A DNA stretch of 64,000 nucleotides from Octopus vulgaris (lineage: Eukaryota): contig OX597825.1 in the NCBI GenBank assembly GCA_951406725.2, forward strand, positions 31,992,001 to 32,056,000, given 5' to 3'. Below are positions 1-62,145 of this stretch, piece by piece. A model generated the notes under the pieces. It had not been told where the DNA came from. It did no database searches and was given only the letters and a program-made list of their open reading frames with translations. The position numbers were made by a program, and so were the translations under genes. The number at the start of each line of letters is the position of its first letter. The stretch's first letter is position 1.

Positions 1-281
1 TCTTCACCATCTCGTCCGGCAGCTTATTCCACGGATCTGCAACCCGGACGGAGAAAGCCCCTCTCCTTCGATTGAGATGAAATCGTCGCAGATAGAGCTT
101 TTCGGAGTGACCCCGCAGCCGACGCTCTGAAGCAGGAGTGAAGAACAGCTCTTTCGAGAGGTTACACTTTCCGCTTATGATGTTGTGAGCAAGAATGAGA
201 TCACCACGGCGTCGGCGTTTTTCTAGAGAATAAAGGTCGAGCGTCTTCAGCCTTTCTTCATAAGACAAATTCTTGAGACCA
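1..281 (-). mobile_element. CR1/L2-type LINE ORF2 C-terminal fragment (one frameshift)
   Basis: Minus strand translates to GLKNLSYEERLKTLDLYSLEKRRRRGDLILAHNII...then AFSVRVADPWNKLPDE after a 1-nt frameshift. YEERL/RRxRGDLI/FSxRVxxxWNxLP are typical CR1-clade C-terminal motifs. Confidence 0.8.
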
Positions 282-634
282 AGATAAAATAAAGTACCAG
301 TCAAATACTGAGGTCAGTGGTAGCACCTAAACCCCTCCCTTCAAAACTACAAACCTTGTCCCTTTATTGGAAACTATAATTATTATATTCAGTATGATGG
401 ATGGCAGACATTGTAGTCCAGAGTAAAACATCTGGTTCCTCTCTGAATTCAAATCCTGCTGGGAACACCTTTGTTCTCACGTTTCCAGAAGTTGGTCAAA
501 TAAACCACCAGCCTTTCTACACTCCATCTCTTCACCAAATTTGTGACTCTGTGCCAATGTTAGAAAAATATCAGATGAGCTAGTTTTTGATGGCGTTTCT
601 CTATATATCTCCATTGAATGGAGAGAAAACTCAG

Positions 635-940
635 TTTGCTTCCTAACCACATGGTCCCAGGTTCAGTTCCACTGCGTGATACCTTGGACAAGTGTCTTCT
701 ACTGTAGCCTCAGGTTGACCAAATCCATGTAAGTGGATTTTATAATAGAAAACTGAAAGAAGCCCATCGCATATATGTGTGTGTGATTGTGTCTGTGTTT
801 ATGTCCTTGTAACTTAACGGTTCAGCAAAAATGATTTATATAAGTACCAAGCTCAAATATATACTGGGTTTGATTCATTCAACTATAATTCTTCAAAGCA
901 GTGCCCTAAAATGGCTACAGACTAATGAATGAAACAAAAA
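635..940 (+). mobile_element. tRNA-derived SINE (family A), degenerate copy
   Basis: Matches the ccacatggt...ggttcagt.ccactgcgtg..accttgg.caagtgtcttctact...gaaactgaaagaagccc body seen at 42705 and 57403. Confidence 0.7.
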
Positions 941-2539
941 CTGAGACATTGTTACTGAAGGTAGGGTGACTGTTTTAATGTCCACTTTTCCATGCTTGTA
1001 TGAGGCAGATTTTATACTGCTGGATGCCCTTCCTGACACCAACCATCACCTGTCTCCAAACAAGATATTTCCCCATGGTTAGATATATTTCCATGGACTG
1101 GAAATGAGTGACTCCTCTCTATGATGGTAACACTTCTCTATAATTCTCCTGTTATGCCAAGATGAGAAGATATGTGCACACACACACCAATGATGAGATT
1201 TCAGCTTCTACACCATTCATTCACAAGGTTTTAGTCGCCTCATGGCTATAGTAGAAGACATTTACCTCACAAGTGTTGTGTAGTATAACAATCCAAAACC
1301 ATGCAATTGGGAAGTTGTGCCTTTGTCAAAGTAGAAATAAATTTATAAAACCTGTAAGTACCAACCCTTTTTGAGGTCTTGAGATTTGTAAAGATCGAAA
1401 GAATACAACTGCAAATATGTGCATCATAAACGGGGTTCTTCTGAAGTGTCTTTGGAGTAATGTTACTAAACAGAGTGGATAGCTCGGAGATGAGAGAGGA
1501 GCCACTACTTTTCTGAATTGAGGAATCACAGCACTGATACTATTGTATCTTGTGGTGAGAATGAAACAAGAAAAAATTCCTGAACATGTTTTACAGGTCA
1601 AACCAACAAGCAGGAAACCCTGGAGTAGACCATGAGCAAGATGGTTGGGTCCATAAAGTTGGTTAGTCTCACTTTGGGATTCAATCGGATCAAGTGAAGA
1701 TGGTCACTTCTGACAGGATCTGATGGTGATTGAGGAATAAGTGGTTGAAGAAGATGGGATCTAATTATCACAGCATTGTAGGATTTCTTCCTCTTTGTTT
1801 TAAAAATGTATATGCAAGGAAACAAGAAAAGCATCCGAACAATATATTCAACTCTTTATTCGGGTATATTGTGAAATGTACGTTTTTGGTCGGTCAGCAA
1901 CCACACAGCAAATCTGGAGTTAATCAAAAACACGTTTACAGTGTTCAATGGCTGCATCCCAAGTCTCCGATGCAAGGAACACGACAGAACTTTTTCCGTC
2001 AGTCTTTTAACGCATGTGCATGAGGGAACCTTCGCAGGCCTTCTAGAAGATTCCAGTCCACACACGCGCACTGAAGACTGTCAAGATGACGTCACTACAG
2101 CATCCTGCTAATATTTATTAATTAAAAAGATTATATATTAACGATGGTGATAAGGATAATAATATAAGTTACAGTTAAAATTTGCCAAAAGATATTTTGC
2201 AATCAGAAATGTTACTTCACTATGTAGTTTGAGAAGAGGGTCCACTATGAAGAATGAAAAGTAGAGGAAAAATAAATTACCATCTTAAGAAGAAAAACTG
2301 GTATAAATGCATAACACTGAGAATCTGTCTCAGAACAGACTCATCAGTTCCATGGTGATAAAAATTTAAACTCTATTCTAACTTTGCTTCAGTTAATTCT
2401 TAAAATAATGAAGAATTTAGTAAAATAGCTTTGTTGTTATTAAGCTGGTGCCTAGAACATGACATGAAATTTTGGTGGCTGATTTTAAACTTAGATGACT
2501 TTAAAATGAGGTTTGCATCATAAAAAGAGGAAAGGTGTT

Positions 2540-2910
2540 GAGCTGGCAAAATTGCTAGCACTTCAGAAAAACTGTTTAGCAGCATTCATTCTGGTTCTTC
2601 ACATTTTGAGTTCAAATCCCACCAAAGTCAACTTTGCTTTTCATACTTTCAGAATTGATAAAGTACCAGCTGCACAAAATTTGAAACCATAAGATGACAA
2701 CAGAATCATTTACACCTGGGAAAAAATGCTTAGCAACATCCACTCTACCTCTTTACATTCTGAGTTCAAATCCCACTAAAGCCAGTTTTGCCTTTCATTT
2801 TTTCTGGGTCAATAAAATAAATACCAATTAAGTATTAGGAGGAAGAGTTAATATAAATGACTTGCCCCATTCCTTCATAACTGCTGGTTTTATGTCAAAA
2901 TTAGAAATAA
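2540..2910 (+). mobile_element. Two tandem degenerate family B SINEs (Nin-domain-like)
   Basis: gagttcaaatcccac...actttgc.tttcat motif occurs twice, same family as 46432-47240 and 48666-48887. Confidence 0.6.
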
Positions 2911-3133
2911 TTAATAAGGAGGATGTGAATAGGAATATGTTCTCTAATATTGGAAGTCAAGGAGAAGAGAATCAGAACAAACACTTCAAGACATTCTCTC
3001 AGATGTTTTATCAATTCGCCTTTGAAATATCTGTTCTAAAACTGATGAAAACTAAAGGTTTCACACACACTCTACCAATATTATTTGCCTTCTTGCCACC
3101 TAACTTCTTTATTAATGAGAAGACTGAATAGAG

Positions 3134-3352
3134 ATTCTGTTGTGTCTGGGGAGAGTCATTTTCTTTTTGTGCCTTATAATGAAACACACTCTGGTAAAAT
3201 TTCCACTTATTAGTCAAGACAATTGAAAAGGTTGTAAGACACAACAAAAAGTTTAAGAAAATAAAAATAAGAAATAAGTGGAAATTTTACCAGTGAGTGT
3301 GTTACATTATAAGGCACAAAAAGAAAATGACTCTCCCCAGACACAACAGAAT
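3134..3352. mobile_element. Fold-back MITE (~78 bp arms)
   Basis: attctgttgtgtctggggagagtcatt...tttccacttatt is inverted at 3272-3352. Related to the element at 16061-16245. Confidence 0.75.
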
Positions 3353-4970
3353 ATGCTTCAACACACAAACTCATATAAAGAATCTTGCAAACCAAATCCA
3401 AAAATGAAATATGAATAAAGATTGCATCTCTGTAATTCCTCTGTCTTTTGTTGTGGTATTGGAAATTACATTTAATATAATTTAACCGTTTTGATCCCAA
3501 CCTGTCTGAGGACATCCATGGTTCTATGATACAAACTTTCTAGCTTAACCCTCAAGTATTTCAGTCAACCATATCAAGCCCAAATATTTTGCTTGTTTTA
3601 AGTGAGAGGCTGGTTAGATCCAGTGACCTAGACGGAAAGCTTGCATTAAAATTTCATGTTAATTAGTTCCAAACCACCAACTTTATTAACCCTTTGTCTG
3701 TCCAAAGCATTTTCATAAATGGATCCTCAATGTCTTTGCATGTTTTAAGACTTGTTTCATATGTTTTGAGTAAAATAAAGCTTTCCCTTTCAGAAGTCTC
3801 AAGTTACTCTGAGAAAGAAACTGGGGATGTGTACCATAAATGACAGCAGAGAAGTATGAGATAAGCAGGACAGGCAAAACGTTTATAATGACAAAATTAT
3901 TTTACTAAATCCTTCATTATCTTGAAAATTAATAGAACCAAAGGTGATATAATATCGAGAGAAATGTGGTAAGAAAAGGATTAACCAAAAATAAACCCAT
4001 TTTTATTTTATTAACTCTTTTACTGTGTAAGTCAATTGTGTCCACTCAAAATTTCACCACTTACTGTGGAAAGCAGTTTTTTAGGCCAGTCTATCTTTTG
4101 TTGAGGAATACCATGTTTAAAACTACTTTATTGTTGAGATGTGTTATATTTTTTGAAGCAGTATGACTTGCAGAAAAGGACCAATCCTATATTTAGTTAC
4201 ATATTTACTATTATTTCTGGTATTAACTAACCTTTATTTAGGAGTATAGTGTTAAAAACACTATACTTTAGTTTGCCATGTTTATAATTCTCAAAGCCCA
4301 ACCCCTCAACACTATCAGAATCACCCCGCAACAAGTATTTGACAGCTTGTTACCCAGGTATCCTAATAAATAGTACACAGGGTTGTGGTGAAAACATTTG
4401 TTATCAGAATAAAGTGGTGAGAAAAAGTTCAAAGTACACTTATTTCTGCTAGCGACAAAGAGTCTATCTCTCTCTTTCTGAGTGAAGGACAGATTATATA
4501 TCACTTGTATGTCAAGTGTAATGTTGCATAGTAGTAAGATATGGCCATTGAATAGGTGAAGACTGGGAATTAAGCAAAGGAGCCTGCTCTACTGGATATG
4601 TGTTACTTATATGCATGAAGGATGAAGCACAATTGTGCCGAGGGAGGAACTAGTCATCAGAAACATCAGCTATAATAATTGAGGACACAGTTGTCTGATA
4701 TGTAATAAGGAAGGCATGATGGCTGACAAAGTGGAAATAGCCAAGAATAGTAAAGGGTGATCTCAAGAATGCTGGTTGGGCTTTATATGAGCACATAACA
4801 CTGAGAATCTATACAAGAACAGACTTGTCAGTCCCATATCACCATGAAAAATTATAACACACTCACACACACATATATATATATAGCATTCAAAATGTGA
4901 CTGTGTGTGTACCATTGGCGATTTTTTTTTTTCGTCTGTCTTCCCTTCTCTGGATCTTTCCTTCTCCTAA

Positions 4971-5005
4971 GTTTCCGACGAAGAGCTCCACTCGAAACGT
5001 TAAAC
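4971..5005 (+). ncRNA. Minimal type I hammerhead-like motif (U4C variant core) in a short repeat at ~4895-5097
   Basis: gttt CCGACGA a gag-ctcca-ctc GAAA cg UU aaac: stem I gttt/aaac, stem II gag/ctc, palindromic AACGTT in place of stem III. Confidence 0.45.
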
Positions 5006-5093
5006 CCTCCTTCTTTCCTGAGTGTCCAATAATACTATATTTGTTCCACGTCCTCACGTTATTGTGTTTTTTTGTGCTTTCTTGTTTGGATTA

Positions 5094-5130
<37 letters not shown>

Positions 5131-5141
5131 TATATAGAAGG

Positions 5142-5192
5142 AGCTTCTACAGGACTAGTACTGTTTCATTCAAGAGAAATCTTCAGGAAGCT
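5142..5192 (-). ncRNA. Type I minimal hammerhead ribozyme motif (left arm copy)
   Basis: Exact reverse complement of 8248-8298. Confidence 0.65.
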
Positions 5193-5540
5193 ATTTAACA
5201 AGAATTGTATTAGCATTTATACATTTAGGCAGGTTTAAAGGAGTGGTGGTGGGGGACTTTTTTGGGGGTAGGCATAGCGCAAAATATCATACTTGGGGGA
5301 GTGGTCAAGGAGTCAGTGGTAAGTTAGATGAAAGAATAGATAAATAAAAAAATCAAATAATAAAATAAAAAATAAAAAATAAAAAAATAAAAAATAAAAA
5401 AATAAAAAATATATATAAAAAATATATATATAAAAAAATATATATGTAAAAAAGGGGGGATAGAGTTATAGGTAAATAAGGAGATTCTCACTTGTACCTA
5501 TACACACATGTGTATACGTATCTACACACATATATATATA

Positions 5541-5584
<44 letters not shown>

Positions 5585-5887
5585 TATATACACATATACA
5601 TACATATCTACATACACACATACATACACCCGCCCACATATACAAATTTATACACATGCACATGCATATACCTGTCTACACATACACACACGTATATATG
5701 CATACACTCACTCCCATGCATGCACGCATACACACATGTATATATATACACACGACACACATACATATATACACAGAAAAATATATATTCATACGCACAT
5801 ACACTCATGCACACACAACACACCTAGTTCCCTATATACACATATTTACACCTATATATACACATACACCCACATACACATATGTAC

Positions 5888-5920
<33 letters not shown>

Positions 5921-6025
5921 CATATACACGCATACATATATATACATGTGTGCACATACATACATATACACATATACATACACACACACATACACATGTG
6001 TACCTATACATACCTACACATACAC

Positions 6026-6060
<35 letters not shown>

Positions 6061-6471
6061 CAATCCAATACAGGCCCATTCCTAATTTTAATTTTATTAT
6101 CTTCATTTATTACTTTTGTTATCTTTGATCGCTAGAGCTAAGGATCCTGGCTATGGCAGCATGTCCATTTGTCTGTCTACTAGAAGGCAAGTACTCATTC
6201 CCGCACGCACACTCATTAGCACGTACATTCACCCATTCGTACACTCATACACATACACGTACGCACGCGTTATATTCATACATACAAACATCTACATACG
6301 TTCACGTATATACACATACGTACTCGTACCTACAGATTCGTGTCTACACTTTAGGAGGCTAGTCTATACATATACACCAATAAATATACATATATATATA
6401 TATATACACATATACATACACACACACACATATACTCCTACATACAGATACATACCTATATATATATATAC

Positions 6472-6522
<51 letters not shown>

Positions 6523-6908
6523 CATACACACACACACATATATATACACACACATACATACACATATATATACATACACAAACATATATACACACATATA
6601 TATATATATACACACATACACACACATACATACATATACACATAAACACATACATACGTATACATACATACATACATCCATACATCCATACTTACATGCA
6701 TTTATACGCATTTATGTGTATGCGTATAAATGCATGTAAGTATGGATGTATGGATGTATGTATGTATGTATACGTATGTATGTGTTTATGTGTATATGTA
6801 TGTATGTGTGTGTATGTGTGTATATATATATATATGTGTGTATATATGTTTGTGTATGTATATATATGTGTATGTATGTGTGTGTATATATATGTGTGTG
6901 TGTGTATG

Positions 6909-6957
<49 letters not shown>

Positions 6958-7365
6958 GTATATATATATATAGGTATGTATCTGTATGTAGGAGTATATG
7001 TGTGTGTGTGTATGTATATGTGTATATATATATATATATGTATATTTATTGGTGTATATGTATAGACTAGCCTCCTAAAGTGTAGACACGAATCTGTAGG
7101 TACGAGTACGTATGTGTATATACGTGAACGTATGTAGATGTTTGTATGTATGAATATAACGCGTGCGTACGTGTATGTGTATGAGTGTACGAATGGGTGA
7201 ATGTACGTGCTAATGAGTGTGCGTGCGGGAATGAGTACTTGCCTTCTAGTAGACAGACAAATGGACATGCTTCCATAGCCAGGATCCTTAGCTCTAGCGA
7301 TCAAAGATAACAAAAGTAATAAATGAAGATAATAAAATTAAAATTAGGGAATGGGCCTGTATTGG

Positions 7366-7408
<43 letters not shown>

Positions 7409-7513
7409 GTGTATGTGTAGGTATGTATAGGTACACATGTGTATGTGTGTGTGTATGTATATGTGTATATGTATGTATGTGCACACATGTATATATATGT
7501 ATGCGTGTATATG

Positions 7514-7546
<33 letters not shown>

Positions 7547-7850
7547 GTACATATGTGTATGTGGGTGTATGTGTATATATAGGTGTAAATATGTGTATAT
7601 AGGGAACTAGGTGTGTTGTGTGTGCATGAGTGTATGTGCGTATGAATATATATTTTTCTGTGTATATATGTATGTGTGGTCGTGTGTATATATATACATG
7701 TGTGTATGCGTGCATGCATGGGAGTGAGTGTATGCATATATACGTGTGTGTATGTGTAGACAGGTATATGCATGTGCATGTGTATAAATTTGTATATGTG
7801 GGCGGGTGTATGTATGTGTGTATGTAGATATGTATGTATATGTGTATATA

Positions 7851-7894
<44 letters not shown>

Positions 7895-8247
7895 TATATA
7901 TATATGTGTGTAGATACGTATACACATGTGTGTATAGGTACAAGTGAGAATCTCCTTATTTACCTATAACTCTATCCCCCCTTTTTTTACATATATATTT
8001 TTTTATATATATATTTTTTATATATATTTTTTATTTTTTTATTTTTTTATTTTTTTTATTTTTTTATTTTTTTATTTTATTATTTGATTTTTTTATTTAT
8101 CTATTCTTTCATCTAACTTACCACTGACTCCTTGACCACTCCCCCAAGTATGATATTTTGCGCTATGCCTACCCCCAAAAAAGTCCCCCACCACCACTCC
8201 TTTAAACCTGCCTAAATGTATAAATGCTAATACAATTCTTGTTAAAT

Positions 8248-8298
8248 AGCTTCCTGAAGATTTCTCTTGAATGAAACAGTACTAGTCCTGTAGAAGCT
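8248..8298 (+). ncRNA. Type I minimal hammerhead ribozyme motif (Penelope pLTR-type)
   Basis: agcttc CUGAAGA t-ttc-tctt-gaa-t GAAA cag tactagtc ctg UA gaagct: 6-bp stem I, intact core, stem III ACAG/CUGU with palindromic ACTAGT loop, predicted cleavage after GUA (8292). Confidence 0.7.
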
Positions 8299-10059
8299 CC
8301 TTCTATATAATAAATTAATTTTACTCTGCTATGTATTGAGTACCTTACTTACTGTGGTTAACCCCGAATCAACCCGGGACCTACATATATATATATATAT
8401 ATATATATACATACATACATACACACATGTACACACACATTTAAAATATTTCTTTTAAGTCTAAACAACACAAGTAAAAGAAAAGGTTGGGGGTCTGCTA
8501 CTCAGCTCTACATAACACAGCATTACCATAGAAAACCAGTGAGAAGCAACTCAATTGATTTGATTGATTTGGATGTTTAAGAAGAGGAGCATAAGATTCC
8601 CCAACCACCTGACCATGTTTTAGGTTGTCTAAAAGTGGATCTGTCAACTGAATGAAGACACAGGATTAATATTGACAACAGTGGCAAAGGAGATCATTAT
8701 GATTGAATTGGGTAGCAAAAGTGTTGTTGGCAAGAGAAAGTGGACAACAACTCTTTGAAGGTTGAACAACTAAGTCAAGGAGATCAACTTCTTAAAAAGA
8801 AAATAGTGTGTGTGGTTGGTTGTATGGGCAGAGAAAGTTAAGTGTTACGAGGTCCTGTCTTACTGAAGACTATTCAACATCTTGAGTGATGGAATCATAA
8901 AAATATGCACCCAGTACACTGTTAAATGGTTCGTGGCAGGAAGGGCATCTGGCCATAGAAACTGCGCCATAATGGAACATAAACGTGAGAAGTGGTTTTT
9001 GGGTTATCTTGGAGGGCAGCAACTCCAAATAAGAACTGAGCCATTCATGTTGATCCTTCCAACTCATACCAGCATGGAAAAGCAGATGTAAAATAATTAT
9101 GATAATGATCATGATCATGATGAATAACAATGACAGCAATAAGGATGATGATGATGGCAATCAATAATGATGATGACCATGACAACGATGATGATGACAA
9201 AAAAGATTTTTAAATCAACTGAAATAATGAAGTGAATTTATTTTAATCTTTAATCAAATATAGATTTCTGACTGATTTCTTTTATTTTCCCCCCTCAGAT
9301 TGAAATATTTTCATTAACAATGAGATCAATCAACCAACTTAAATTAATACTTACACAAAAAATGGAAACAAAAAAAAACCCTATAAAAATACAAGTCCAA
9401 TCCTTAATTTTTGCATCAAGTGCCATCATATTTTGCTCCATGAAGACATTGACCTTTTTTAGTACAAATCTGTGTGACTTCTGGTGATTTTTACCAAACT
9501 TGACATATTTCTTCTGCTAAATCATTGCCAGAAAGTAGTAAGACTTTACCATTCAGTCTTTCTAGAGCCAGGTCTAATTGGAAAGTCTCTCTCTCTCTCT
9601 CTCTTAGAATATCAATAACTAGTAGGGATGCAGTATTTCATTATGCAACCCTAATATATTACAAAGAATATATTAAATGTTTTTATAAGTCAATATTTTG
9701 TCCTACTGTGTTAGCAGTGCATTTTACATCAGTTGTTGAGGTTATCTCTACAAGATATTCTATAGAAATTATTGCCTGCACAGATTTTTGTTACAACCTT
9801 TCATATCCAAGACAGCAGATGTAAAGAAAGAATGAGATTGAAGATGAGAAAAGGGTAATGGGCATATATGTCATATTTTGGGAGATTTTGATCTTTCATC
9901 AGCACCCATCTAACTCCTTAATCATCTCCTCACAGAGGGGATGACAAGGAACTGAAATTCCCAGCAGTTTGCTGCACTTGAGAAGACGTGTCAAGTAAAA
10001 CCATGGCCATCCATCCCTACAGTCATGTCCTTTCAGGCCATGCTCTTCACTGCCACTCA

Positions 10060-10307
10060 CTCTCTCGGCCAAGAGGCCATTATGTTGTGGGCTCAAAAGT
10101 GCTGGTGTTACATAGAAAGCATCCAAGCTGGTACCACTTACAAAGACACCCAATACAATCTGTAAAGTGGTTGGCATTAGGTAGGGTATCCAAGCATAAA
10201 AAACATGTCAGAACAGCCAATTGGAGCCTGGCACAGCTCTTCAGCTTGCCAGCTCCTGTCAAACTGTCCAACCCATGCCATCATGGAAGACAGACATATG
10301 ATGATGA

Positions 10308-10310
<3 letters not shown>
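10060..10310 (+). mobile_element. RTE 3'-end-derived short copy ending in (GAT)n
   Basis: gtggttggcattagg.agggtatcca...aacccatgcca.catggaa...gatgatgatga matches the 3' end of the RTE at 30440-30626. Confidence 0.7.
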
Positions 10311-10343
<33 letters not shown>

Positions 10344-10524
10344 AACTTAATTGTTATGGACAATTTGTCAAATTTTGGCATATTTGGCATTAGAAATTTT
10401 TTCGTTTGCCCTTATTTATAAGTTGTTTATAAATATAACCTTTAGAGGTATTTTTCAATATGCTGGCCATTCATAAAATTTTTTTTTCGAAAAAAATTTA
10501 TCCTACATTAAATATATATATATG

Positions 10525-10805
10525 GGCCGTGACTACTGAGGACATGCAAAAGCTTGCAAGGAATGAAGCCAGTATGCTCTGATGGATGTGTAATGTCAGT
10601 GTGCATACTTGACAGAGTGTAAGTATCTTGAGAGAAAAGTTGGACCTAAGAAGCATCAGATGTGGTGTGCGAGAGAGACGTTTGCGCTGGTATGGTTATG
10701 TGGCAAGAATGGATGAGGATAGCTGTGTGAAAAAGTGTCATACCCTAGCAGTTGAGGAAACCTGTGGAAGAGGTAGACCCAGGAAAACCTGGGATGAGGT
10801 GGTGA
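10525..10805 (+). mobile_element. RTE LINE fragment, same family as 27986-30626
   Basis: [36 protein letters not shown]...[13 protein letters not shown] is near-identical to the C-terminus of ORF 29044-30381. Confidence 0.85.
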
Positions 10806-10854
10806 ATCTGGAGAAGAAGCACACTCAAAAAAGTAGAGCAGTCTATATTTTTTA

Positions 10855-11022
10855 CTGGGGAAGGCCAGTTTATGGGTTCCCTTGAGTTTCCCATCCATAA
10901 AGGGTTTAACTTTATGGCATTTCATCAGACCCCAAGACCTGTTGATCAGTTTGATACACCATAAAGTTAAACCCTTTATGGACGGGAAACCTAGGGTAAT
11001 TCCATAAACCGGCTTTCCCCAG
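10855..11022. mobile_element. Hairpin MITE with TA TSD (Tc1/mariner-type)
   Basis: TA|CTGGGGAA...TTCCCCAG|TA with ~65 bp imperfect inverted arms. Confidence 0.7.
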
Positions 11023-11039
11023 TAAAAAAAAAAATATAT

Positions 11040-12480
11040 ATGGTGGTTGTCTACTCCTTATACAGAGTTTGACCACCCCCTGTACCTACACCTTAGCACC
11101 ATCATGGCAACTGATGTGGCTTTTTAAACCAGACAATGTTCTGAAAAGACACCCACATAGATCGCACCTCCGGTTTGGACCACCAAGAGCTGCAGGTAAG
11201 TTATGCTCTTTGTGGATCTTGAAATGTCTTTTGAGGCCTCCGTTGGATTTGCAAACCTTGTCATACACTGCATTCAAAGGTGTGCACAGACATATAGTCA
11301 GAATAGTTTGTGGAAGTTAGTTTTCCATCCGTTTGCAGATGAGATTTGAGGCCAGCCAAAGACAGGCATGGTCTATCTCAGACTGTGCACACAAAAAGGT
11401 CATTGTCATTCACCTTCTCGATTGTTACATTCTTCCTTAGATCTCTTTTGAGTCTTACTTGCATTATCCTGACCTCTTCAAATGCTTTTACTCCACTCTA
11501 CACCTTTCTTTGCCATCCAACTAGATCCAAAGCAAGGGTTTCTATATCTTCTGGAATCATTCATAGTAGGCCTTATACCATCCTTGAACCTTTTTTTAGG
11601 TTTGCACTGATAACATTTCCCCTCTGCAAGCTCACCATGAAACAGCTGTTTTGGCATGCGTTCATCTGCCATTGAGATGGTCACACCATCTCAATGGCCA
11701 CACCATCTCAATTGGTTCCTCAAAATCATAGCTTTAATTGAGGGGATGCCTGCAGATGCAAGGACATCTGTGTTTGGGAGTAAAAGACCTCCATTGAATT
11801 TTTTAAATGCGATGAAGACATTTTTGATGGAATTGTTCCAACAGTTTAAAATACCTTTCATAACAAGTCCAAGTTTCATAGGAATACAACAGGGATGGTA
11901 AGACAAATGATTTGTAAAGAGCCAACTTTGTATTCTTATTTATATGTTACTAGCACCAAGTACGTGACTTCAAGCTACCAAATGCTTTTGCTGCCCTTTG
12001 AATACACAACTGTATTTCTGTATCAAGATTTCCATCATTTTGAACAGAGCTTCCAAGTTAGACGAACGAATAGGCAACCTCAAGTAACTTTCCCTTAACA
12101 AAAGTTTTAGTGGGGCGTTACAAACAGCACCATGTGCAGGTTGATGCTTTACAACTGTTTTTTCAAGTTGGTGGTCAAGCCCAAATCCTCACAAGCCAAG
12201 TCAAATACAGATACAAGAGATTGCAGACCTGTTTCAGAATTATTGACAAGATTGCAATCGCCAGCATACAAGAGTGAAGTAAAAACCTTTGTTTTGAATT
12301 TCAGTCTGGTTAGATTAAAAACATACCCTGTTGTTTGATATTTTATGTAAATACCCTCCTCAGAGTTTTGAAAAGCATGTGACAACACAACAGTAAAGTA
12401 TATTGCAAAGAGGGTAGGTGCATCAAGGTCTTGCTTTACTCCATTTTCCATTGTATTTAGTACGGTATCATCCATACAAT
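11040..12480 (-). mobile_element. Degraded RTE-clade LINE, RT C-half plus C-terminal C2H2 zinc fingers
   Basis: Fragments NGVKQ..APTLF, LLYAGD, QLRWCGH, MADERMPKQLFHGEL, PKKRFKD, and CKSNGGLKRHFKIH / CDLCGCLFRTLSGLKSH. Confidence 0.8.
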
Positions 12481-13843
12481 TTCAAAATAAGGTGATTAGA
12501 ATCAAAATAAGCAACAAGGATATCCAGAGGTAATGCAGTACAATCGTTTCACGCAACTCCATTTAATTGAACAATGCAACCATTACATCAATTTAAATGC
12601 AGAGCAATCTTCAACTGCACAAAGACATAGAATTTAATTAAATTAAAACAGTTGGACACAGTATAATTTTATCTAAAATCTCCAAGAAATTAAGGAGATA
12701 GACAAAGAACATGCTGCCTTCACTTTAGCTTAGAAGCTACTAAGGTATCAGGAAGAAAGACTTGTTACAGATTTTGCTTGTCACTGTTTCATGGGGTCAG
12801 TTTTAATTTAGACTAGTTTTATCAAATCCTTATATATCTAAGGCCAAGAGAACAGGAGGCAGTGTCAGTTCGGGGTAGGACTGAGGGAGTCGACTGAAAT
12901 CATAATGGGTATAGTCATAAAAATCAAGATTTATTTGAAGCAATATCATGAGATTTGGTAAAGGAAAACTTAAATTAGCGGTGGTGTAATTCCCATACGG
13001 GACTGTCACGTTAAGTTGACAGTATACAACCACTCTATCACTCCACCACCGCTCATGTCACTTTGAAACATTTAGAAATTTAATATTTCTGATTAAATCA
13101 AGATGTTAGCTGACAATTAAGGGGGCTGGTCATTAGCAGACCATTGATAATGAAACAGGGGAAATCTTACCATGTAGTATTATAGTTAAATATTTTAAGC
13201 AATACTGCTATATTGTATAAATTTAAAGTTTAGGGTTATTCAGAAGAAGAATTATAACAAAAGGAATACTTTTGAGCATATACCAAACTATTATACATTT
13301 TCTATAAATCTTCTCTATTGATGTTACTAAGTTGTATATATACTTCATCATGATCTTTAGTGATTGAGCTATTTTATAGCCTTTTCTATGGTGTTTTACC
13401 CTACCTGATCATTTGAATACTTTATAATTGCCTTTAGATAAACCTAAATTTTTGTACCCCTATAAATTCATACTTAGCTTATATAAAACAATAGGGGTAT
13501 CTTCACAACTTAAAATTAAACTGCTTAAATTATAATTTAATTAATTTATATTTAATTTGTTCTTTCACCTCAATGCTAAATCTTCTTGATAACCTGAAAT
13601 TTTAAGTTAATACAATATGGCTATATTGTTTAAAATAGGTTTTAGTAATTAATTTTTTTATTCCTTTCTTAAAGGGTTCCATCCTCCTGATCTTAGTATT
13701 TATATTGGCCTTTATACAAGCAACCCTTCTAATTAAGTACCCGTAAGAAACTGTAATATGTACGGATCAACACTAACTTTTAAAACCTGTATTATACCTC
13801 TTCATTTAAAATTAGTATATAATTAGCACGTTCCTTTAAATAA

Positions 13844-14046
13844 CAATATGGTTTTCGTTCTCCCAGGGGCACAGCTGATTGTATCTTTACTGTCAGACAA
13901 TTTACAAGAAAAGTGCATTGAATAGAATCTTGCTCTATATCATTGCTTTGTTGATTTGAGCAAAGCATTCATTACGGTTAATTAGCTCTGAGGCTGATTT
14001 TAAGGAAAATAGGTTGCCCAGAAAAATTTGTAAACATGGTCAGGGC
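13844..14046 (+). mobile_element. RTE RT N-half fragment, opposite orientation to 11040-12480
   Basis: Translates to QYGFRSPRGTADCIFTVRQ/LQEKCIE*NLALYHCFVDLSKAF...LRKIGCPEKFVNMVR. Confidence 0.75.
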
Positions 14047-14085
14047 TTTGCTTAATTTTCTCCAAGATCTTTCCATTGTAAATAT

Positions 14086-14889
14086 GGTTAATATCTAGAT
14101 CCGCACCCGGTGGGGAAAATGAGATCCGCACCCGGTGGGAAAAATGGAAACGAAAATGTGTAACAGTTGTAAGGCATCGTATATTGAAGGAATAAGACGG
14201 AAAAAAGCGCGCTGACAAACGGGGGGTGGGGGCTCGAGAAATTCCCAGGATCAACCGTAGAGGATCCACGCCCAGGTGGCAAAAGTGGAAAAAAATATGT
14301 GTAACAGGTGTAAGGCATCGTATATTGAAGGAATATGACGAAAAAAAAGCGCGCTGACAAACGGGGGGGGGGGGCTCGGAAAATTGCCTACGATTTAAAG
14401 AAAAATTTACCATCAATTTTCACCATTTTAAACGCATTTCACACACATAGCCCAATGTCATAATTCAAAACTAACGCAGCGAAAATTTTGAAAAGTTCCC
14501 CCAGTTCTGAAAAAATCGATAAATTCGACATGGGGTCGCGAATCAGAAACACAATGGTGAAAATTGATGGTAAATTTTTCTTTAAATCGTAGGCAATTTT
14601 CCGAGCCCCCTCCCCCCCCCGTTTGTCAGCGCGCTTTTTTCCCGTCTTATTCCGTCAATATACGATGCCTTACACCTGTTACACATATTTTTTTCCATTT
14701 TTGCCTCTACGGTTGATCCTGGGAATTTCTCGAGCCCCCACCATCCACCCCCCGTTTGTCAGCGCGCTTTTTTCCCGTCTTATTCCGTCAATATACGATG
14801 CCTTACAACTGTTACACATTTTCGTTTCCATTTTTCCCACCGGGTGCGGATCTCATTTTTCCCACCGGGTGCGGATCTAGATATTAACC
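14086..14889. mobile_element. Non-autonomous DNA transposon with ~340 bp TIRs and 8-bp TSD (Merlin-like)
   Basis: Ends GGTTAATATCTAGATCCGCACCCGG...CCGGGTGCGGATCTAGATATTAACC. GTAAATAT flanks both sides (14078-14085 and 14890-14897). Internal subrepeats present. GG/CC ends with an 8-bp TSD fit Merlin. Confidence 0.8.
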
Positions 14890-15643
14890 GTAAATATTAC
14901 CTTTTGTATTCGAAATTTTGGATCATCTGTGAAATGTGTCAGTGTGTATGTGTACGCGCCCACTAATTTTGTTCCTTTTCCCCAACATATTATATTCTGA
15001 TAGAATCGGAACCTATATCTCATAAGCATTTGTTGAAAATTTCATTAAAAATCCTTTTTTGAAAGTTATGAGGAAACAAAATCCAAAGTGGTGCTCACTT
15101 GGGTAGTCTGCTATTTTCAGTAAAACAAGCAAAAAAATTAGGTGCTAAATATTCCTAAAAAGACCTGTGTCACGGCTGAAAAGCTTTAGGCGTCAGGTCG
15201 AGTCGATCAAGCTACAAATTTCCACTGTGTCTATTTTCAGTGTCTGATTTATAGATAAATCACAAGTTGTGGTGCACCTGAGCACTGTATACAATAATTT
15301 CATTATTATATTTAATAGCCACGGGCGAAACGCTTTTGATAAACAAGCCGTGTGTAACTCCTCCCACTAATACTTCCCCTACCATCTCATTGGTCCTTAT
15401 CTTCTCCATCCCTTCCTCTCTCTCTTTCTCTCTATCTCCTCCTTCTATTTCAACCTTTACTCTTTCAATGCCAGATTCTCTTTATCTTTCCCTTCACTTT
15501 CCCTTCTCTTTAATTGCCTCCTCCTCCTTCCACATATTTTTTTGTCTGCCAACCACATAAAAACACACACAACACATATATATATATATATATGTCCAGA
15601 ATTAAATCTTCTCCTTCAGCTTCGAAGTCTCAATAACGCCATC

Positions 15644-15769
15644 ATGCTTTCAACATCAGCCTGGCGCAGCATTTCGCGTAGTCCTTTACGATGGTATATG
15701 CTATCATCCAAAGCTGGTTACGCGGGGATACCAGCTCCTATAACGAACCCTGACATCGCTCAGTCCAAG
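15644..15769 (+). CDS. ALDH2: ALDH2 exon 1 (mitochondrial targeting-like leader)
   Basis: [42 protein letters not shown] then gtaaag, phase 0. No acidic residues in the first 37 aa. Confidence 0.85.
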
Positions 15770-18541
15770 GTAAAGCTTATGGCTTATACTCTATTTTAAC
15801 GTGTGTAAAGAACTCTTTTTTTGTTTGTCAAAAATTAGTTTTAAAATATGGGAGTTTCTTATACATGAATGGTATTATAATCCCTTACAAAACCTTTTTT
15901 TCCCCCAAATTTTAAGCCCCCCAAATTAGGGAGTTCCTTGTACACGTTAAAATACGGTATATTTCTGAGTTGTGTTTGTGTGTATTTCGTTTTTGTATTT
16001 GATTTGCAAGATTCTTTTTGTGAATTCGTTTGTTGAAGCATACTGAAGCTTGTTGGAGTTATTCTGTGTTAATGCCTTATTAATTAACACTCACCGGTTC
16101 CATTTCTGCTCCTTTACTTATTTGTTTCGTTGCTTCAAAGGTTGCAAGAAGCAACGAAAATTTTAGGGGAAAAAATTAGTGGAAATGGAACCGGTGAGTG
16201 TTAATTAATAAGTCATTAAAACAGAATTACCCTCCCCAGACACTATCGTGAAACTTTTTTAACAGAAGACACTCCCCACCTATGTTAACGGAAACAAGCT
16301 TCCCTCCAGCATTGTGTTGGTATGTTTTCAGATATAGTATAATTTATATTAAGACTAACATATATTAAGGTTGAATCCTACTTTGGTGTTGGATTAAAAC
16401 GAAAATAAAATTATAAAACAGACATTAAAAGCAAAAAATTCTTGCATTATACACGACTAAAGATTGTAATAACATTTCATTCACTCCTCCCACTTTCTTA
16501 AAATTATGTTTTCGTAGCAATCTTTCGGTGTTAGTTGTTTTCAGTCCGACACCTAAATTATAAATCTGATAAAATTTTGGTACTTTCATCCTTACGATTT
16601 TCACGAAGACCAAAAAATATCAAAAGTTACCTTACATATGTCGATGTCCATCGTTCTACTCTGTCGTACGTTTAAAGACGTAAATATTTTAATTAGAATA
16701 TACAATCTTTAAATGGAATTAACTGCTATTATATATATGAGGTCAATTAAGACGATTGCAACAACAAAAAGAAAAAAACACGGGAGACGGGGGTCAAGAA
16801 GGGGAATTTCCGAGGTTCCGCTCTACCCCACCCCCTCTGTTTTCCGCGGAAAGAATGCATGTAGCTTGAGATTTGGTTGCTATTTCTAGCTTATGTTGGA
16901 TTATAGTTTTTAGTCATGAGTGACTTTGTTACAGTATTTAAAGGACAAAAGTATTAAATAATAACAAAAACGAATGTCATCTATTTTTTTCTATTGGATT
17001 TGTTTTATTTTATGTAAAACGAAAACAAGGAAAATTCTAAACAGCCTTGTTTATTTCGGTGCATCAAATTCTGTTACTTTACCACCAAAAGTAGATCAAT
17101 GTTGAAACTTGCCTCCCCCCGCCTCCTAAACAAAAAGTTCAGTGACCGTCAAACATCATTCAAGTTATGGGTGGGGCAGAATTAGTAACCGGGGTAAAGT
17201 GAGTAATTTCTGATTTCTCTTGTTTTCTCCCAACCTGTTTGAAATCATTCAAGCGTTGCTCCTTCATCTTGTTGCATTATTTTTAGGAATAAAAATTGAT
17301 CAGCATAATTGTTAAAGTTGAGTTTGGGACACTTCTTTAGAAGTGCACCTCTATAAGAAAATTATGCCTAATTTCTAAAAAATTATGAAAATGGGAAATA
17401 TATTAAAAATAAATGAAGCATGCAAAAAATTAGGAAGATTTATCAATTTTTAAATATTTTATTCTTAAAAAAAATATACGGACACGGGCACTGGCGAATA
17501 TAAACAAACATGTCGGATGATAACTTATTGTTAACGATACAAGGGGCCTGACAGTATCGTCTGCGAATTGTAAGAAGACCGTTTCACAATCTTGAAAGTC
17601 AGTTGTGCCTGAACGAGAAATATCACGTCATAAAATGGACGAAGGTAAAGCGAGTTCACACCACCTAACACTAACCCTAACAGTAACCAGTGTGCGCAGT
17701 AAAAAATCTGATTTAAAATTATCAAGAATTTGCAAACGTTGTTGTGGGGCCCCTCGTATCATTAATATCTGATACATCGTCTGACACATTTGTTTATATT
17801 CGCGAGTTCCCGTTTTCCGTGTTTTATTCTTTAGTATAAAATATTTTAAAATAGATGAATCTTAATTTTTTGCATACTTCATTTATTTTTTCCGTTTTCA
17901 TTTAAAAAAAACAATTAGCGTCATTTTCTTGGAGAGGTGTGCTTCTAAAGAAGCGTCGAGTTTGGAACAGTCGAGTGACAGATACTTTATTATTAATTTT
18001 TTTTTTTTGCCCCAAGGAATTTTGGTAAATTTATAGTTTCACACCGGACTCGATTTCGTTACAAAATAACCTTTTTCGGGCGGTATTTTTTAATTTTACA
18101 GTGGTCTTAGTTGATCTCGTAAGCTGTCGGAAATGCATTTTTTCCGCGGAAATCAGCGGGCGTGGGGTAGGATGGAACCTCGGAAATTCCCCTTCCCGAC
18201 ACCCACCTCCCGTGTTTTTTTTTGGGTTTTTTTTTGTTGTTTTTGTAATCGTCTTAATTGACCTCATATATAATCAGTTAATTCCATTTAAAGATTGTAT
18301 ATTCTAATTAAAATGTTTACGTCTGGTTCGCTGGAATTGAGTGGATTAGCAAAAGTCGCTTTGTTGTTCCTCTGACCGGTCGGAAGCATGACAAAGAGAC
18401 GTTGCTTCCGCTAATTCAAAATACATCAAGCCTGGCTCAGTTATCTATAGTGATTATTGAGCGGCTTACAAAGATATACAAAAATTGGGTTATCAGCATT
18501 ACGTGATAAACTATAAAGAAAATTTTGTTGGGACCACGCGT

Positions 18542-26400: not shown

Positions 26401-29400
26401 TACATCCCTCTAACTTAAGTTTACCAATAGAATTGGTATTGATTTGACTAAACCCTTCAGAGCAGTGCTCCAGCATAGCCCCAGTTTTAGAATAGGCACA
26501 CTTGTTCTCCCTATTTGTCATATGGAAAAAGGGAAAAAAAACAAAACTTTAATGTTCATTTTTCCACACTTGCCTGAGCTGGACAGAATTAGCTGAACCA
26601 GATTTTCTCTGGCTGGATACACTTTCTATCACCAACCCTCACCTGTTTCCAAGCAAAGTAAATATTTTCCTATGACCAGATGTGTTTTCCATGGAAGATT
26701 GGTTGTAAATAACCATCATTGTCATACATCACATGATGTCAACACTAGACTCACATTCACTCGTTCACTCACATTCACTCGTTCACTCACATTCACTCGT
26801 TCACTCACATTCACTCGTTCACTCACATTCACTCATTCACTCACATTCACTCGTTCACTCATTCACTCACATTCACTTGTTCACTCACATTCACTCGCTC
26901 ACTCACATTCACTCGCTCACTCACATCCACTTGCTCACTCACATTCACTTGTTCACTCACATTCACTCGCTCACTCACATCCACTTGCTCACTCACATCA
27001 ACTCCACTCCACTCATGCACTCCACTCCACTCGCTCATGCACTCCACTCCACTCGCTCATGCACTCCATTTGCTCGCTCTCTCTCCATTTGCTTGCTCTC
27101 TCTTTCTCTCTCCCTTCACTCCTCTGCTCCTCACTCCTTCATTCCTCACTCCTTCATTCCTCACTCCTTCGCTCCTCACTCCTTCGCTCCTCACTCCTTC
27201 GCTCCTCACTCCTTCGCTCCTCACTCCTTCGCTCCTCACTCCTTCGCTCCTCACTCCTTCGCTCCTCACTCCTTCACTCCTCACTCCTTCACTCCTTCAC
27301 TCCTCACTCCTTCACTCCTTCACTCCTCACTCCTTCACTCCTCACTCCTTCACTCCTTCACTCCTCCACTCCTCACTCCTTCACTCCTCCGCTCCTCACT
27401 CCTTCACTTCTCCTCTCCACCCCCCGCTACTCCACTTCTCACTCCTCCGCCCCACTCAGAATTGTTTGTATATATATGACAGTCTTCATTGAGTTTCTGT
27501 CTACCACGTCCATTCCTCAGATTTTCGTTGGCCTGGACTAATAATAAACACCTGCCCAAGTTACTGTGTAGTGGGGCTGAACTCTTATCCACATAGTTAA
27601 GAAGCAAGCTTCTTAAACACCCAGCCTTGCCTTCATGTTACCTTAGTAAAACCTGTTTTCCAACCTTTACCAGTATGATTGTAATGGTGGTGGTGGTGGA
27701 TGTTCCTCATTGAAAAGGTCTGAAATATTCGAACCATTGGCAGTTTAAAGTGTCAGCTGTTCTGAGTGATTGTATAAATTTAATCATTGAATATGATTGA
27801 TTATTAGACTTATGCAATCACTCAAATGATTTAACTGTGTAACAAGGATGAAAGGTCTGGAACACTTGAGGAGTGCAGGTCTCATCTCGTTACATTAAAT
27901 TATTTGTCGAAGGAAAACTAACACTTCAAATATCTTCTACAGCATAAATAATATTTATTTTTCTGGATTCGCAATAATATATATAAGAAACAAACCAATC
28001 CAGAAAAGAAGGATTTGGAGGCTAAAGAACCCTTCGCATGGTCAGAAATTTAGGGACATACTCATCAAGAAATTTGATGAGAGGGAGGAGGAGCTTCAGA
28101 CGTCAGACATAGAAGGTAGCTGGGAATTCCTACGGGACAGCTTGCTGAGTGCCACAGACCAAGTCTGTGGATGGTGCAAAGTCCCTTCCAGACCTAGAAT
28201 TACGTGGTGGTGGAATAGTGCTGTAGATAAAGCCATCTGTGAAAAGAGACGGGCCTGGAAAGCCTGGAAGGATGGGGGCAGCAGGGAACTGTACCAGATA
28301 GCCAAAAGGGAGGCTGGGCGGCAGGTATACATTGCCAAAGATGTAGCAGAAAAGAAGAAGTTTGCCAATGTCCAGCGTCGCGAGGATCAAAGAGCTGAAG
28401 TATTTCGGATTGCCAGACAGTGTGTCAGAGAAAATAGCGATGTTATAGGAGAGAAATGTGTCCGCATGGATGATGGGGCACTTGCTTTTACTACTAGTGA
28501 AAAGAAAGAGGCTTGGAGAAGCCATTATGAAAGACTGCTGAATGAGGAGAATGAATGGGAGGAGGAGAGCCTGCCAAATGTTGACCCAGTAGAGGGACCA
28601 GCTACCCGAATAGACAGCTCCCTTGTAGATAAGGCAATTAAGGATATGAAACCAGGCAAAGCCCCTGGCCTATCAGGAATCACTGCTGAGATGCTTAAAA
28701 CAGCTGGCTATGTGGGCTATGCCATAGTCACCCGCATTGTAAACCAGGTAGTTCACAATGGAGTCATACCCAATGACTGGTGCAGTAGCACCATAGTCAA
28801 CTGCTACAAGGGTAAGGGTGATGCTCTAGATAGAAATAACTACAGAGGTATCAAACTGTTGGACCAGGTGATGAAGGTCTCAGAGAAGGTCATAACCAAT
28901 CTCATTAGGGAGAGAATTTGTTTAGATGAAATGCAGTTCGGTTTGTACCAGGTAGAAGCACCACTGATGCTATATTCCTGGTCCGACAACTGCAGGAGAA
29001 GTACCTAGCTAAAGATAAACCCCTCTACATAGCTTTTGTAGACTTGGAGAAAGCCTTTGACAGGGTTCCCCGTTCCCTTATCTGGTGGTCGATGCGGAAA
29101 CTGGAGATTGAAGAATGGCTAATAAGGGCTGTACAGGCTCTATACAGAGAGGCTGTCAGCAAGGTTAGGATTGGCAACGAATATAGTGAAGAATTCCGGG
29201 TAGAAGTAGGTGTGCACCAGGGCTCAGCCCTCAGTCCCCTTTTATTCATCATAGTCCTTCAGCCAATAACAGAGGAATTCAAAACGGGATGCCCCTGGGA
29301 GCTCCTCTATGCCGATGACCTAGCTCTCATAGCAGAATCACTACCGGAACTAGAAGAGAAATTTCGGGTGTGGAAGCAAGGGTTGGAATCAAAGGGCCTT

Positions 29401-60530: not shown

Positions 60531-60966
60531 TACTTCAAGTTTTGAATATATTTTGTTTGAAATTTTCTCTCATCAGTTTCACCCTCTCTTTCTTTCCATC
60601 TGTCTGTCTCCCTCTCTATCCATCCCTCTCAATCTTTTATCTCTTTCTTCCAAGCGTAGTAAAGTGGTGGCGTTTGAAACGCTCTTGTTCAAATCGACAA
60701 ATTGTTTTAACATTCTTTTTTTATAATCATGTGCGAAAAAAGAAGAAAAAAAAATAGAAAACAGAAAACCAAACATCTATTCAACACTCAAGTGCATCAA
60801 TCGATCGCATACCATAAGGATTATCAGAATTTATTGAAGTAAGCCAATATACTCACGGCATTATTACGGATGATGGTGATGCTAAGGCGTTGGAACAGTA
60901 AAGCACTCTAACGGACATACCTGTGAGGGTTTAAACATTTGTTATAGAAACCCAAGGTAGGTACAC

Positions 60967-60975: not shown

Positions 60976-61296
60976 TCTTCCGATTGTTTTCTTCAAACTC
61001 TCTCTTTCTTTTCTCTCTTTTACTTGTTTCTGTCATTTGACTGCGGCCATGCTGGAGCACCACCTTTAATAGAGCAACTCGACCCCGAGACTTATTCTTT
61101 TGTAAGCCCAGTACTTATTCTATCGGTCTCTTTTGCCGAACCGCTAAGATACGGGGACATAAACACACCAGCATCGGTTGTCAAGCAATGCTAGGGGGAC
61201 AAATACAGACACACAAATACACACACGCATATATATATATATATATATGTTTATGAAATTAACCAAATTGTCTGAATTTTGAACGGTGGTCTGTTT

Positions 61297-61310
61297 GTTG
61301 CCATGGCAAC
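61297..61310. promoter_or_regulatory. Perfect RFX X-box GTTGCCATGGCAAC with adjacent ETS-like CTTCCG
   Basis: Exact 14-bp palindromic consensus, ~770 bp upstream of the DCST1-like ATG. Confidence 0.65.
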
Positions 61311-61659
61311 TGTGTCGACTTCCGCTCAAGAGGACTCGTTCCATTGGAAAGAGATGTAAAACGTAAAATGGTTCTATCTTGTTTCTTAATAATTTTTTGA
61401 AAAAAATAAAGGCATTATTCGTCATCAGCATCAAAAACTACATCAGCATGGGGATTTGAAAACAATCCATTGAGAATTGAAAAATCTTCAAGTAGGCTGT
61501 GTGGTAAGTAGCTTGTTTACCAACCACATGGTTCCAGGTTCAGTCCCACTCCGTGGTACCTTGGGCAAGTGTCTTGTATTATAGTCTCGAGCCGACCAAA
61601 GCCTTGTGAGTGGATTTGATAGACGGAAACTGAAATAAACCCGCCGTATATATGTATAT

Positions 61660-61793
<134 letters not shown>

Positions 61794-62131
61794 TACGACG
61801 GGCTTCTTTCAGTTTCTGTCTACCAAATCCACTCACAAGGCTTTGGTCGGCTCGAGACTATAGTAGAAGACACTTGCCCAAGGTACCACGCAGTGGGACT
61901 GAACCTGGAACCATGTGGTTGGTAAACAAGCTACTTACCACACAGCCTACTTGAAGATTTTTCAATTCTCAATGGATTGTTTTCAAATCCCCATGCTGAT
62001 GTAGTTTTTGATGCTGATGACGAATAATGCCTTTATTTTTTTCAAAAAATTATTAAGAAACAAGATAGAACCATTTTACGTTTTACATCTCTTTCCAATG
62101 GAACGAGTCCTCTTGAGCGGAAGTCGACACA

Positions 62132-62145
62132 GTTGCCATGGCAAC
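62132..62145. promoter_or_regulatory. Second copy of the RFX X-box
   Basis: Exact match in the right palindrome arm, preceded by CGGAAGT. Confidence 0.65.

Follow-up and report, generated by a model that had tools for sequence, protein, structure and literature searches.

How does a palindrome of more than 3 kb come to carry a self-cleaving ribozyme motif near each of its ends, and would its RNA behave as a ribozyme or as a long duplex? This question is raised by positions 5125-8384 of a window of 64,000 nucleotides of the Octopus vulgaris genome (assembly GCA_951406725.2, contig OX597825.1, forward strand, 31,992,001 to 32,056,000; the window is the whole stretch analyzed and all positions refer to it), in which two nearly identical arms in opposite orientation each contain a type I hammerhead motif. 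We consider, with a probability of about 80%, that the locus is a single recent insertion of a Penelope-like retroelement (PLE), a high-copy one that targets (TA)n; the insertion would comprise the 5'-truncated 3' part of the element and an inverted, tail-less copy joined to it at the 5' end. A Penelope-like origin had been proposed in an initial annotation of this DNA, and it is supported by the conjunction of a hammerhead near the 3' end, an inverted 5'-truncated copy, a one-sided tail, (TA)n flanks and high copy number. The feature is real in the given sequence and its first identification was sound, the structure most likely being a by-product of a known architecture and not a designed ribozyme-capped hairpin.

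Architecture of the palindrome

By global alignment, the left arm (5125-6711, 1587 nt) and the reverse complement of the right arm (6720-8315, 1596 nt) are identical at 1584 of 1598 columns (about 99%), with a sole substitution at 6157/7272 and 13 gap columns which all fall inside homopolymer or dinucleotide runs, seven of them being single bases absent from the left arm. Because the arms are only one substitution apart in 1.59 kb, their sequences imply either a young insertion or a homogenization of the arms. The alignment confirms the palindrome as it had been first described, with two arms of about 1.59 kb, an 8-nt loop, (TA)n on both flanks and a right arm longer by 68-69 bp, and it agrees with the head-to-head (5' to 5') layout that had been proposed.

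The right arm, on the + strand, is the 5'-truncated non-coding body of the element and consists mainly of (TA)/(TG)/(TATG) microsatellite together with a T-rich tract; it includes a stretch of higher complexity at 7065-7369 (+), whose left counterpart at 6061-6364 (- strand) has no Pfam match. On this side only, a tail of 68-69 bp follows (8316-8383/8384, + strand, C8384 being the last non-TA base), which belongs to a high-copy repeat. Indeed, the whole 3' terminal segment (8100-8384, +), resembling a pseudo-long terminal repeat (pLTR), recurs in very high copy number under three organism labels. The left arm is the inverted tail-less copy, with its sense on the - strand and its 3' end at 5125. 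Between the arms, the unpaired 8-nt spacer at the inversion centre (6712-6719, without assigned strand) is TG-rich like the + sense strand and probably represents the final 8 nt of the longer copy. The target tracts, likewise unstranded, are (TA)n at 5098-5124 on the left and at 8385-8440 on the right, the latter passing into (TACA)n. Tandem partial copies forming direct pLTRs are absent from the locus, which has an inverted pair only, and no second copy of the palindromic element was found elsewhere in the 64-kb window.

The hammerhead motif

A descriptor scan for type I hammerhead motifs on both strands of the 64 kb found exactly two, with their cores at 8254 (+) and 5186 (-), one per arm and each in sense when read outward. 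As they are one duplicated sequence, they count as a single observation. Equally good motifs occurred in none of 60 shuffled windows and in none of 150 order-3 Markov windows, and pattern scans of viral contigs and of metagenome contigs with the motif gave 0 matches each. The core CUGANGA, the GAAA, the NUH triplet and the three helices of a type I hammerhead are all present. In the right motif (8248-8298, +), stem I (8248-8253/8293-8298, 6 bp) leads into the core (8254-8260), a U·U mismatch (8261/8272) precedes a stem II of 3 bp (8262-8264/8269-8271), and the GAA (8273-8275) is followed by a 4-bp stem III (8276-8279/8288-8291) with an 8-nt loop III; the GUA triplet ends at 8292 and the predicted cut falls after A8292. 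The left motif (5142-5192, -) is identical in sequence, with a predicted cut between 5148 and 5147. Each arm thus carries a motif, as had been claimed, but the description of a palindrome capped at both ends holds only in part, the left hammerhead lying 17 nt and the right one about 85 nt from the respective end of the element.

The U·U mismatch takes the place of the G10.1-C11.1 pair that closes stem II and that is described as conserved, together with low activity and a dependence on dimers, by Cervera and de la Pena (2014, PMC4209133). It had been flagged from the outset as a possible weakness and it is indeed present; as a defect it counts for less, because 14 of the 25 Hydra-clade families tabulated in PMC8557442 carry U·U at this position (four of the 25 have an identical stem III). 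Moreover, the axolotl motif HHR_Amex2, in which the foot of helix II is likewise a U·U, was 22% cleaved in an hour as a monomer and cleaved better as a dimer (PMC7229834).

A repeat family with many copies

Among sequencing runs, 24 were recorded for 8100-9120, of which 20 contain all or part of this region, under four organism labels. Contigs from four of the 24 (X2, X3 and X8, which are DNA runs, and X10, a putative RNA run whose type was guessed, none of the runs that contain the region being recorded as RNA) were mapped on 8100-9120, skipping the repeat-masked 8374-8433; counts of contig joints and ends are lower bounds among the rows listed, and variants are those listed at 3% or more. 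Over 8100-8379, summed contig depth reaches 0.3-2.7 million in X2, 0.6-1.3 million in X3 and 10-74 thousand in X8, for a unique-flank depth of 41, 47 and 4.4, respectively. The ratio of the two is at least 8,094 (X2), 11,985 (X3) and 2,425 (X8), with medians of 36,031, 23,112 and 4,271; summed depth is not a copy number, as overlapping short contigs inflate it. The segment hence behaves as a dispersed multicopy repeat in three of three DNA-type runs, and these depths can fairly be read as thousands of copies.

The contigs also document how other copies end. At least 19 contigs of X2 exit at 8315 into (AT)n with full agreement, and at least two of X8 do so at 8319, so that the tail-less end seen in the left arm recurs in the family. 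Furthermore, in at least 19 contigs (X2 only, among the rows listed) the reverse complement of the hammerhead stands directly before 8248, with 22 of 25 letters matching; other copies are therefore inverted too, at a different and shorter point (8248-8251). In X2, one contig joint (depth 30.7) returns from 8309 to 8248, which places the 62-bp hammerhead region in direct tandem in some copy; such a duplication, seen as a single joint and not as an array, could fold as a dimer. In addition, loose ends before 8173 (8140-8172) in X2, X3 and X8 resemble a diverged form of the same upstream sequence and point to a second subfamily.

In the DNA runs, 12 places vary within 8100-8379, two of them inside the motif, N7 and 8281. 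N7, with a variant frequency of 18-20%, is the sole varying core position among the listed variants. At 8281, in loop III, T accounts for 72-96% of the summed depth in all four runs (72-95% in the DNA runs) and leaves a 4-nt palindrome. The 6-nt loop palindrome ACTAGT, which had been taken as characteristic, is therefore a minority allele carried by this copy, the family having a central 4-nt palindrome.

Coding content and predicted folding of the RNA

The initial annotation considered the element non-coding, and its frames indeed gave no Pfam match: among 115 frames of at least 48 aa and higher complexity within 1-17000, none matched a reverse transcriptase (RT) or GIY-YIG domain, and the two frames with weak, unrelated matches lie outside the element. 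The long open reading frames (ORFs) inside the arms are microsatellite translations, and no ORF start was recognized in the translations in or after the hammerhead.

Folded alone, the motif reaches pair probabilities of 1.00 for stem I, 0.74 for stem III and 0.11 for stem II, a rival pairing that sequesters the core has a probability of 0.50, and the folding z-score against shuffles is -0.35. Helix III is predicted at -15.2 kcal/mol between two molecules and at -1.4 kcal/mol within one, values in line with an action as a dimer, a mode of hammerhead cleavage which has been reviewed (PMC6765202). For the whole + strand transcript, the predicted structure is one hairpin of -2722 kcal/mol in which 1582 of 1590 left-arm bases pair across and all 51 hammerhead nucleotides are paired to the antisense arm. 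This prediction supports the claim that transcription would yield a long double-stranded RNA (dsRNA) of about 1.6 kb, and likewise the early caution that the hairpin would compete with the ribozyme fold. It speaks against a ribozyme that terminates or caps the transcript: as the antisense arm would be transcribed before the hammerhead and each strand carries a single sense hammerhead, hence no intramolecular dimer, cleavage of read-through RNA appears unlikely. A ribozyme-capped hairpin RNA was accordingly rejected as a candidate, the motif being buried in the predicted duplex.

A putative RNA signal

In X10, eight substitutions are listed, six of which are common to the DNA runs; the other two, seen in X10 only, are A>G changes when read on the sense strand, at 8165 (46 of a depth of 110) and at 8235 (17 of 166), each with a depth of 0 in X2, X3 and X8. 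In a run without matched DNA, these changes hint at adenosine-to-inosine (A-to-I) editing of transcripts of the family, not assigned to this locus. Of the proposal that the palindrome is an editing substrate, a weak hint at the level of the family is what stands. In the same run, depth over 8310-8379 is 16.8 times that over 8100-8239, for 0.57, 0.66 and 1.33 in the DNA runs; this rise past the predicted cut after 8292 is a hint, as contigs cannot show RNA ends or levels. One contig of 163 nt from X10 lies in the right flank.

Taken at their most ambitious, these data would reveal an octopus PLE family without earlier description, numbering thousands of copies, perhaps non-autonomous and with a Hydra-type hammerhead. 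Its insertions would routinely be perfect palindromes, up to several kb long, and would make it a main source of the long dsRNA that octopus ADAR hyper-edits; its RNA would start near the hammerhead cut, as is hinted by the step in X10 depth after 8292. We regard this extended scenario as speculative and rather unlikely.

How the insertion may have arisen

PLEs typically have an inverted, 5'-truncated copy adjoining their 5' end, a tail of 30-40 bp, often on one side, and a bias for (TA)n (Craig et al., 2021, PMC8557442). At the locus, a type I hammerhead lies near the 3' end, the arm alignment reveals the inverted 5'-truncated copy at the 5' end expected from that work, and the tail is present at one end. 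It has also been reported that a purified PLE protein nicks and extends both strands, beginning at two neighboring sites between which the tail lies, and that the hammerhead is protein-assisted and dispensable for insertion (Frangieh et al., 2024, PMC11167929).

By analogy with this class, a GIY-YIG/RT protein encoded elsewhere would nick a (TA)n tract and prime complementary DNA (cDNA) synthesis near the RNA's 3' end, at the distal start 8384. The second arm could then arise either by priming from a nick in the opposite strand at the alternative, proximal start 8315, or through the first cDNA folding back on itself at the central hairpin of the inversion point (7 bp, -5.2 kcal/mol); second priming and fold-back would be indistinguishable at the locus. 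The hammerhead would be inherited from the pLTR of the element, where it may cut weakly, probably as a dimer or with the help of a protein, and the two outward-facing hammerheads would be a by-product of the inversion. Read-through RNA would zip into a duplex of about 1.6 kb that buries the hammerhead, giving a potential substrate of ADAR or Dicer and not a ribozyme-capped RNA.

Several observations weigh against this account. The tail of 68-69 bp exceeds the usual 30-40 bp. With its non-coding 3' region of at least 1.6 kb and its 8-nt loop III, the locus also departs from the Hydra clade, whose elements are short (<3 kb, with little space for a 1.6-kb untranslated region, UTR) and whose loops III are tabulated at 1-3 nt (PMC8557442); the insertion into (TA)n agrees with this clade and is not diagnostic of it, since it is shared by Naiads and reported for Neptune too. 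The hammerhead of Hydra-1_Obim from Octopus bimaculoides differs in sequence from the motif, and two short hammerhead motifs had 0 matches in the supplement of Craig et al. (2021), where FASTA line breaks could hide one. Rfam gave no hammerhead match, either at the gathering threshold over the window or at E<=10 over 8100-8450, where the 18 weak matches are unrelated and the best are microRNA models on the TA tract. In the motif folded alone, the active fold lies 1.2 kcal/mol above the minimum with a probability of 2.4% and a weak stem II, and in contexts of 96-234 nt stems I and III drop to 0.06 or less. Stem covariation was not seen among variants of at least 3% in the four runs, and the absence of stem and core variants other than at N7 is not significant, as 12 variant places over 280 nt predict about 1.5 there. 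No bridging read over the centre or the junctions was seen in the mapping, which covered 8100-9120 without 8374-8433. Finally, no RT or GIY-YIG frame linked to the element was found among the frames of 1-17000 near the locus, as is expected for a truncated copy.

Alternative explanations

Within the truncated PLE insertion favored here, one sub-case is that the element belongs to a true non-autonomous, PLE-derived family of about 1.67 kb with a fixed 5' end, the arms not being randomly truncated. This is possible, and we hold it as doubtful. At least 1.6 kb is devoid of any coding trace and the ends of the two arms are no more than 8 nt apart, as if both reflected the template's 5' end; it has also been argued that animal retrozymes derive from PLEs as non-autonomous elements (bioRxiv 10.64898/2026.07.22.740005). 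Yet fold-back at the central hairpin gives equal arms equally well, other copies invert elsewhere, at 8248-8251, and the mean length of recently active Penelope insertions in octopus is about 5.5 kb (1,795,539 bp/329; PMC13282606), which leaves space for a long UTR.

It is far less probable that the palindrome is a fold-back artefact of the assembly or of a read, derived from one real copy of the repeat. Such an origin could explain why all gap columns fall in runs, with seven single bases absent from the left arm, as in consensus errors of long reads; the lack of a bridging read in the mapping and the presence of a second near-perfect, (TA)n-centred palindrome at 61247-62195 point the same way. 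Against it, the short arm stops exactly at the end that recurs before (AT)n in independent runs, a separate TA tract and a distinct unique flank stand on either side, the one-sided tail is a signature of the class, and the right flank occurs in both X2 and X3 as a single-copy contig that has one difference.

Slightly more improbable than an artefact would be a host-retained regulatory unit, in which a ribozyme-terminated hairpin RNA serves ADAR or Dicer, for instance by silencing the family or by regulating the aldehyde dehydrogenase (ALDH) gene 7 kb downstream. The two A>G changes private to X10 and its 163-nt contig in the right flank would suit this idea, as would the small interfering RNA (siRNA) arising from inverted Penelope copies in Drosophila (PMC3681739), the heavy editing of lizard Penelope and the richness of octopus in dsRNA-forming loci (PMC5625713). 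With one substitution in 1.59 kb, though, the insertion is young or homogenized, thousands of copies could provide the RNA, the hammerhead is buried in the predicted duplex, and X10 is a guessed RNA run, without matched DNA, in which no transcript is tied to the locus.

A miniature inverted-repeat transposable element (MITE) or foldback DNA transposon whose inverted repeats are very long and in which the hammerhead is a passenger or due to chance, would account for a palindromic, non-coding, TA-flanked, high-copy element in a window that has other MITE-like palindromes, and is just as improbable: it was rejected on its asymmetric ends, which differ by 68-69 bp of family sequence and offer no matching pair of terminal inverted repeats, while inversion points differ between copies, the contig data suggest that most copies are single-armed with staggered 5' ends, and the motif is beyond chance and at a PLE-typical distance from the 3' end.

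Other features of the window

To the right of the PLE insertion, 8905-8974 and 9045-9120 are two more repeats, with depths 100-300 times that of the flank; joints in three runs connect 8957-8961 to 9054-9060, so that a single repeat interrupted by an insert probably accounts for both. Further on, 15620-15769 (+) is in our reading a probable first coding exon of an ALDH, targeting-peptide-like, with AG before and GT after it, and 41111-41240 (+) is a later ALDH exon with a Pfam match. Antisense within or beside this ALDH region sits a DC-STAMP/DCST1 gene (58482-60569, -) in a single frame of 695 aa from stop to stop, apparently intronless, whose protein, recognized by Pfam, clusters at 90% identity with a DCST1 entry of Octopus bimaculoides, which places the host in Octopus. 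A frameshifted long interspersed nuclear element (LINE) at 27899-30381 (+) has an RT carrying an inserted PHD-like finger and is preceded by long minisatellites of 18, 15 and 23 bp (26749-27455).

Repeats able to form dsRNA are abundant across the window. The near-perfect palindrome at 61247-62195 (463 of 472 aligned columns) is centred on a (TA)75 tract, each of its arms containing one copy of a short interspersed nuclear element (SINE)-like repeat frequent in the window; the descriptor scan found no hammerhead motif in it, and it is either a fold-back duplication at the TA tract or an artefact. The 810-bp element at 14083-14892 is MITE/foldback-like: its long inverted arms match imperfectly (321 of 356 columns), and each of its ends contains internal tandem units of 25 bp. 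Four short MITE-like palindromes lie at 3134-3352, 10848-11029, 16058-16230 and 51217-51363, and 3265-3411 is similar to 15983-16123.

Significance

The locus adds to Octopus one very abundant, hammerhead-bearing PLE family that looks undescribed. In the literature searched on octopus, hammerhead, Penelope and retrozyme, no description of it was found; Repbase and Dfam lay outside this search, and a repeat library may already contain the family. It is also a clean example of the inverted insertion of PLEs, in which a single locus displays both start sites of reverse transcription, and could help to distinguish whether such inversions form by second priming or by fold-back. Moreover, it could help to test whether the unusually high load of dsRNA and hyper-editing in octopus (PMC5625713) is partly due to PLE palindromes. 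The locus does not indicate a new system, and its remaining interest resides in the abundance of a family for which no description was found, together with the hint of editing.

Comparison with known systems

In octopus, expansions of Penelope elements have been described (PMC8967140), and for O. vulgaris 329 recently active Penelope insertions in 30 families have been counted, in a report whose accessible parts leave hammerheads unmentioned (PMC13282606). Pairs of hammerhead motifs on opposite strands, 100-700 bp apart, have been reported in Schistosoma (PMC4209133).

The animal non-LTR (long terminal repeat) retrozymes resemble the octopus locus in being non-coding, PLE-related and endowed with a type I hammerhead, and the initial annotation had proposed a retrozyme identity. 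Retrozymes are defined, though, as short direct tandem units (PMC7229834), of 150-450 bp with a hammerhead in each, whereas the octopus locus is one inverted pair of 1.6-kb units. As the units are inverted, no circle could be excised between two sense ribozymes, and the retrozyme was rejected for want of direct tandem units, even if retrozymes as a class have been linked to PLEs (bioRxiv 10.64898/2026.07.22.740005).

The Poseidon element PAc of Anolis (PMC11167929) likewise has a one-sided tail between two start sites of reverse transcription, an AT-rich target and a pLTR hammerhead; PAc is a coding element, and the tail of the octopus locus is 68-69 bp long. The hammerheads of the Hydra clade share with the octopus motif the core CUGA(A/U)GA, the U·U, a 4-bp stem III, a position tens of nt from the 3' end and insertion into (TA)n, while the octopus motif has a weaker, A-U-rich stem II of 3 bp and a longer loop III with its central 4-nt palindrome.

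The nearest parallel in layout is Penelope-13_HM, a Hydra-clade PLE of Repbase which is inserted in a (TA)n target, has an inverted 5'-truncated copy at nt 1-966 and carries hammerheads on both strands near both of its outer ends (PMC8557442). It is a coding element of 3045 bp with an inverted part of 966 nt and a loop III of 1 nt, whereas the octopus locus has equal arms of about 1.6 kb that are non-coding and filled with microsatellite, and a loop III of 8 nt. With respect to its architecture, the palindrome at 5125-8384 is the published standard of the PLE class rather than a new system.

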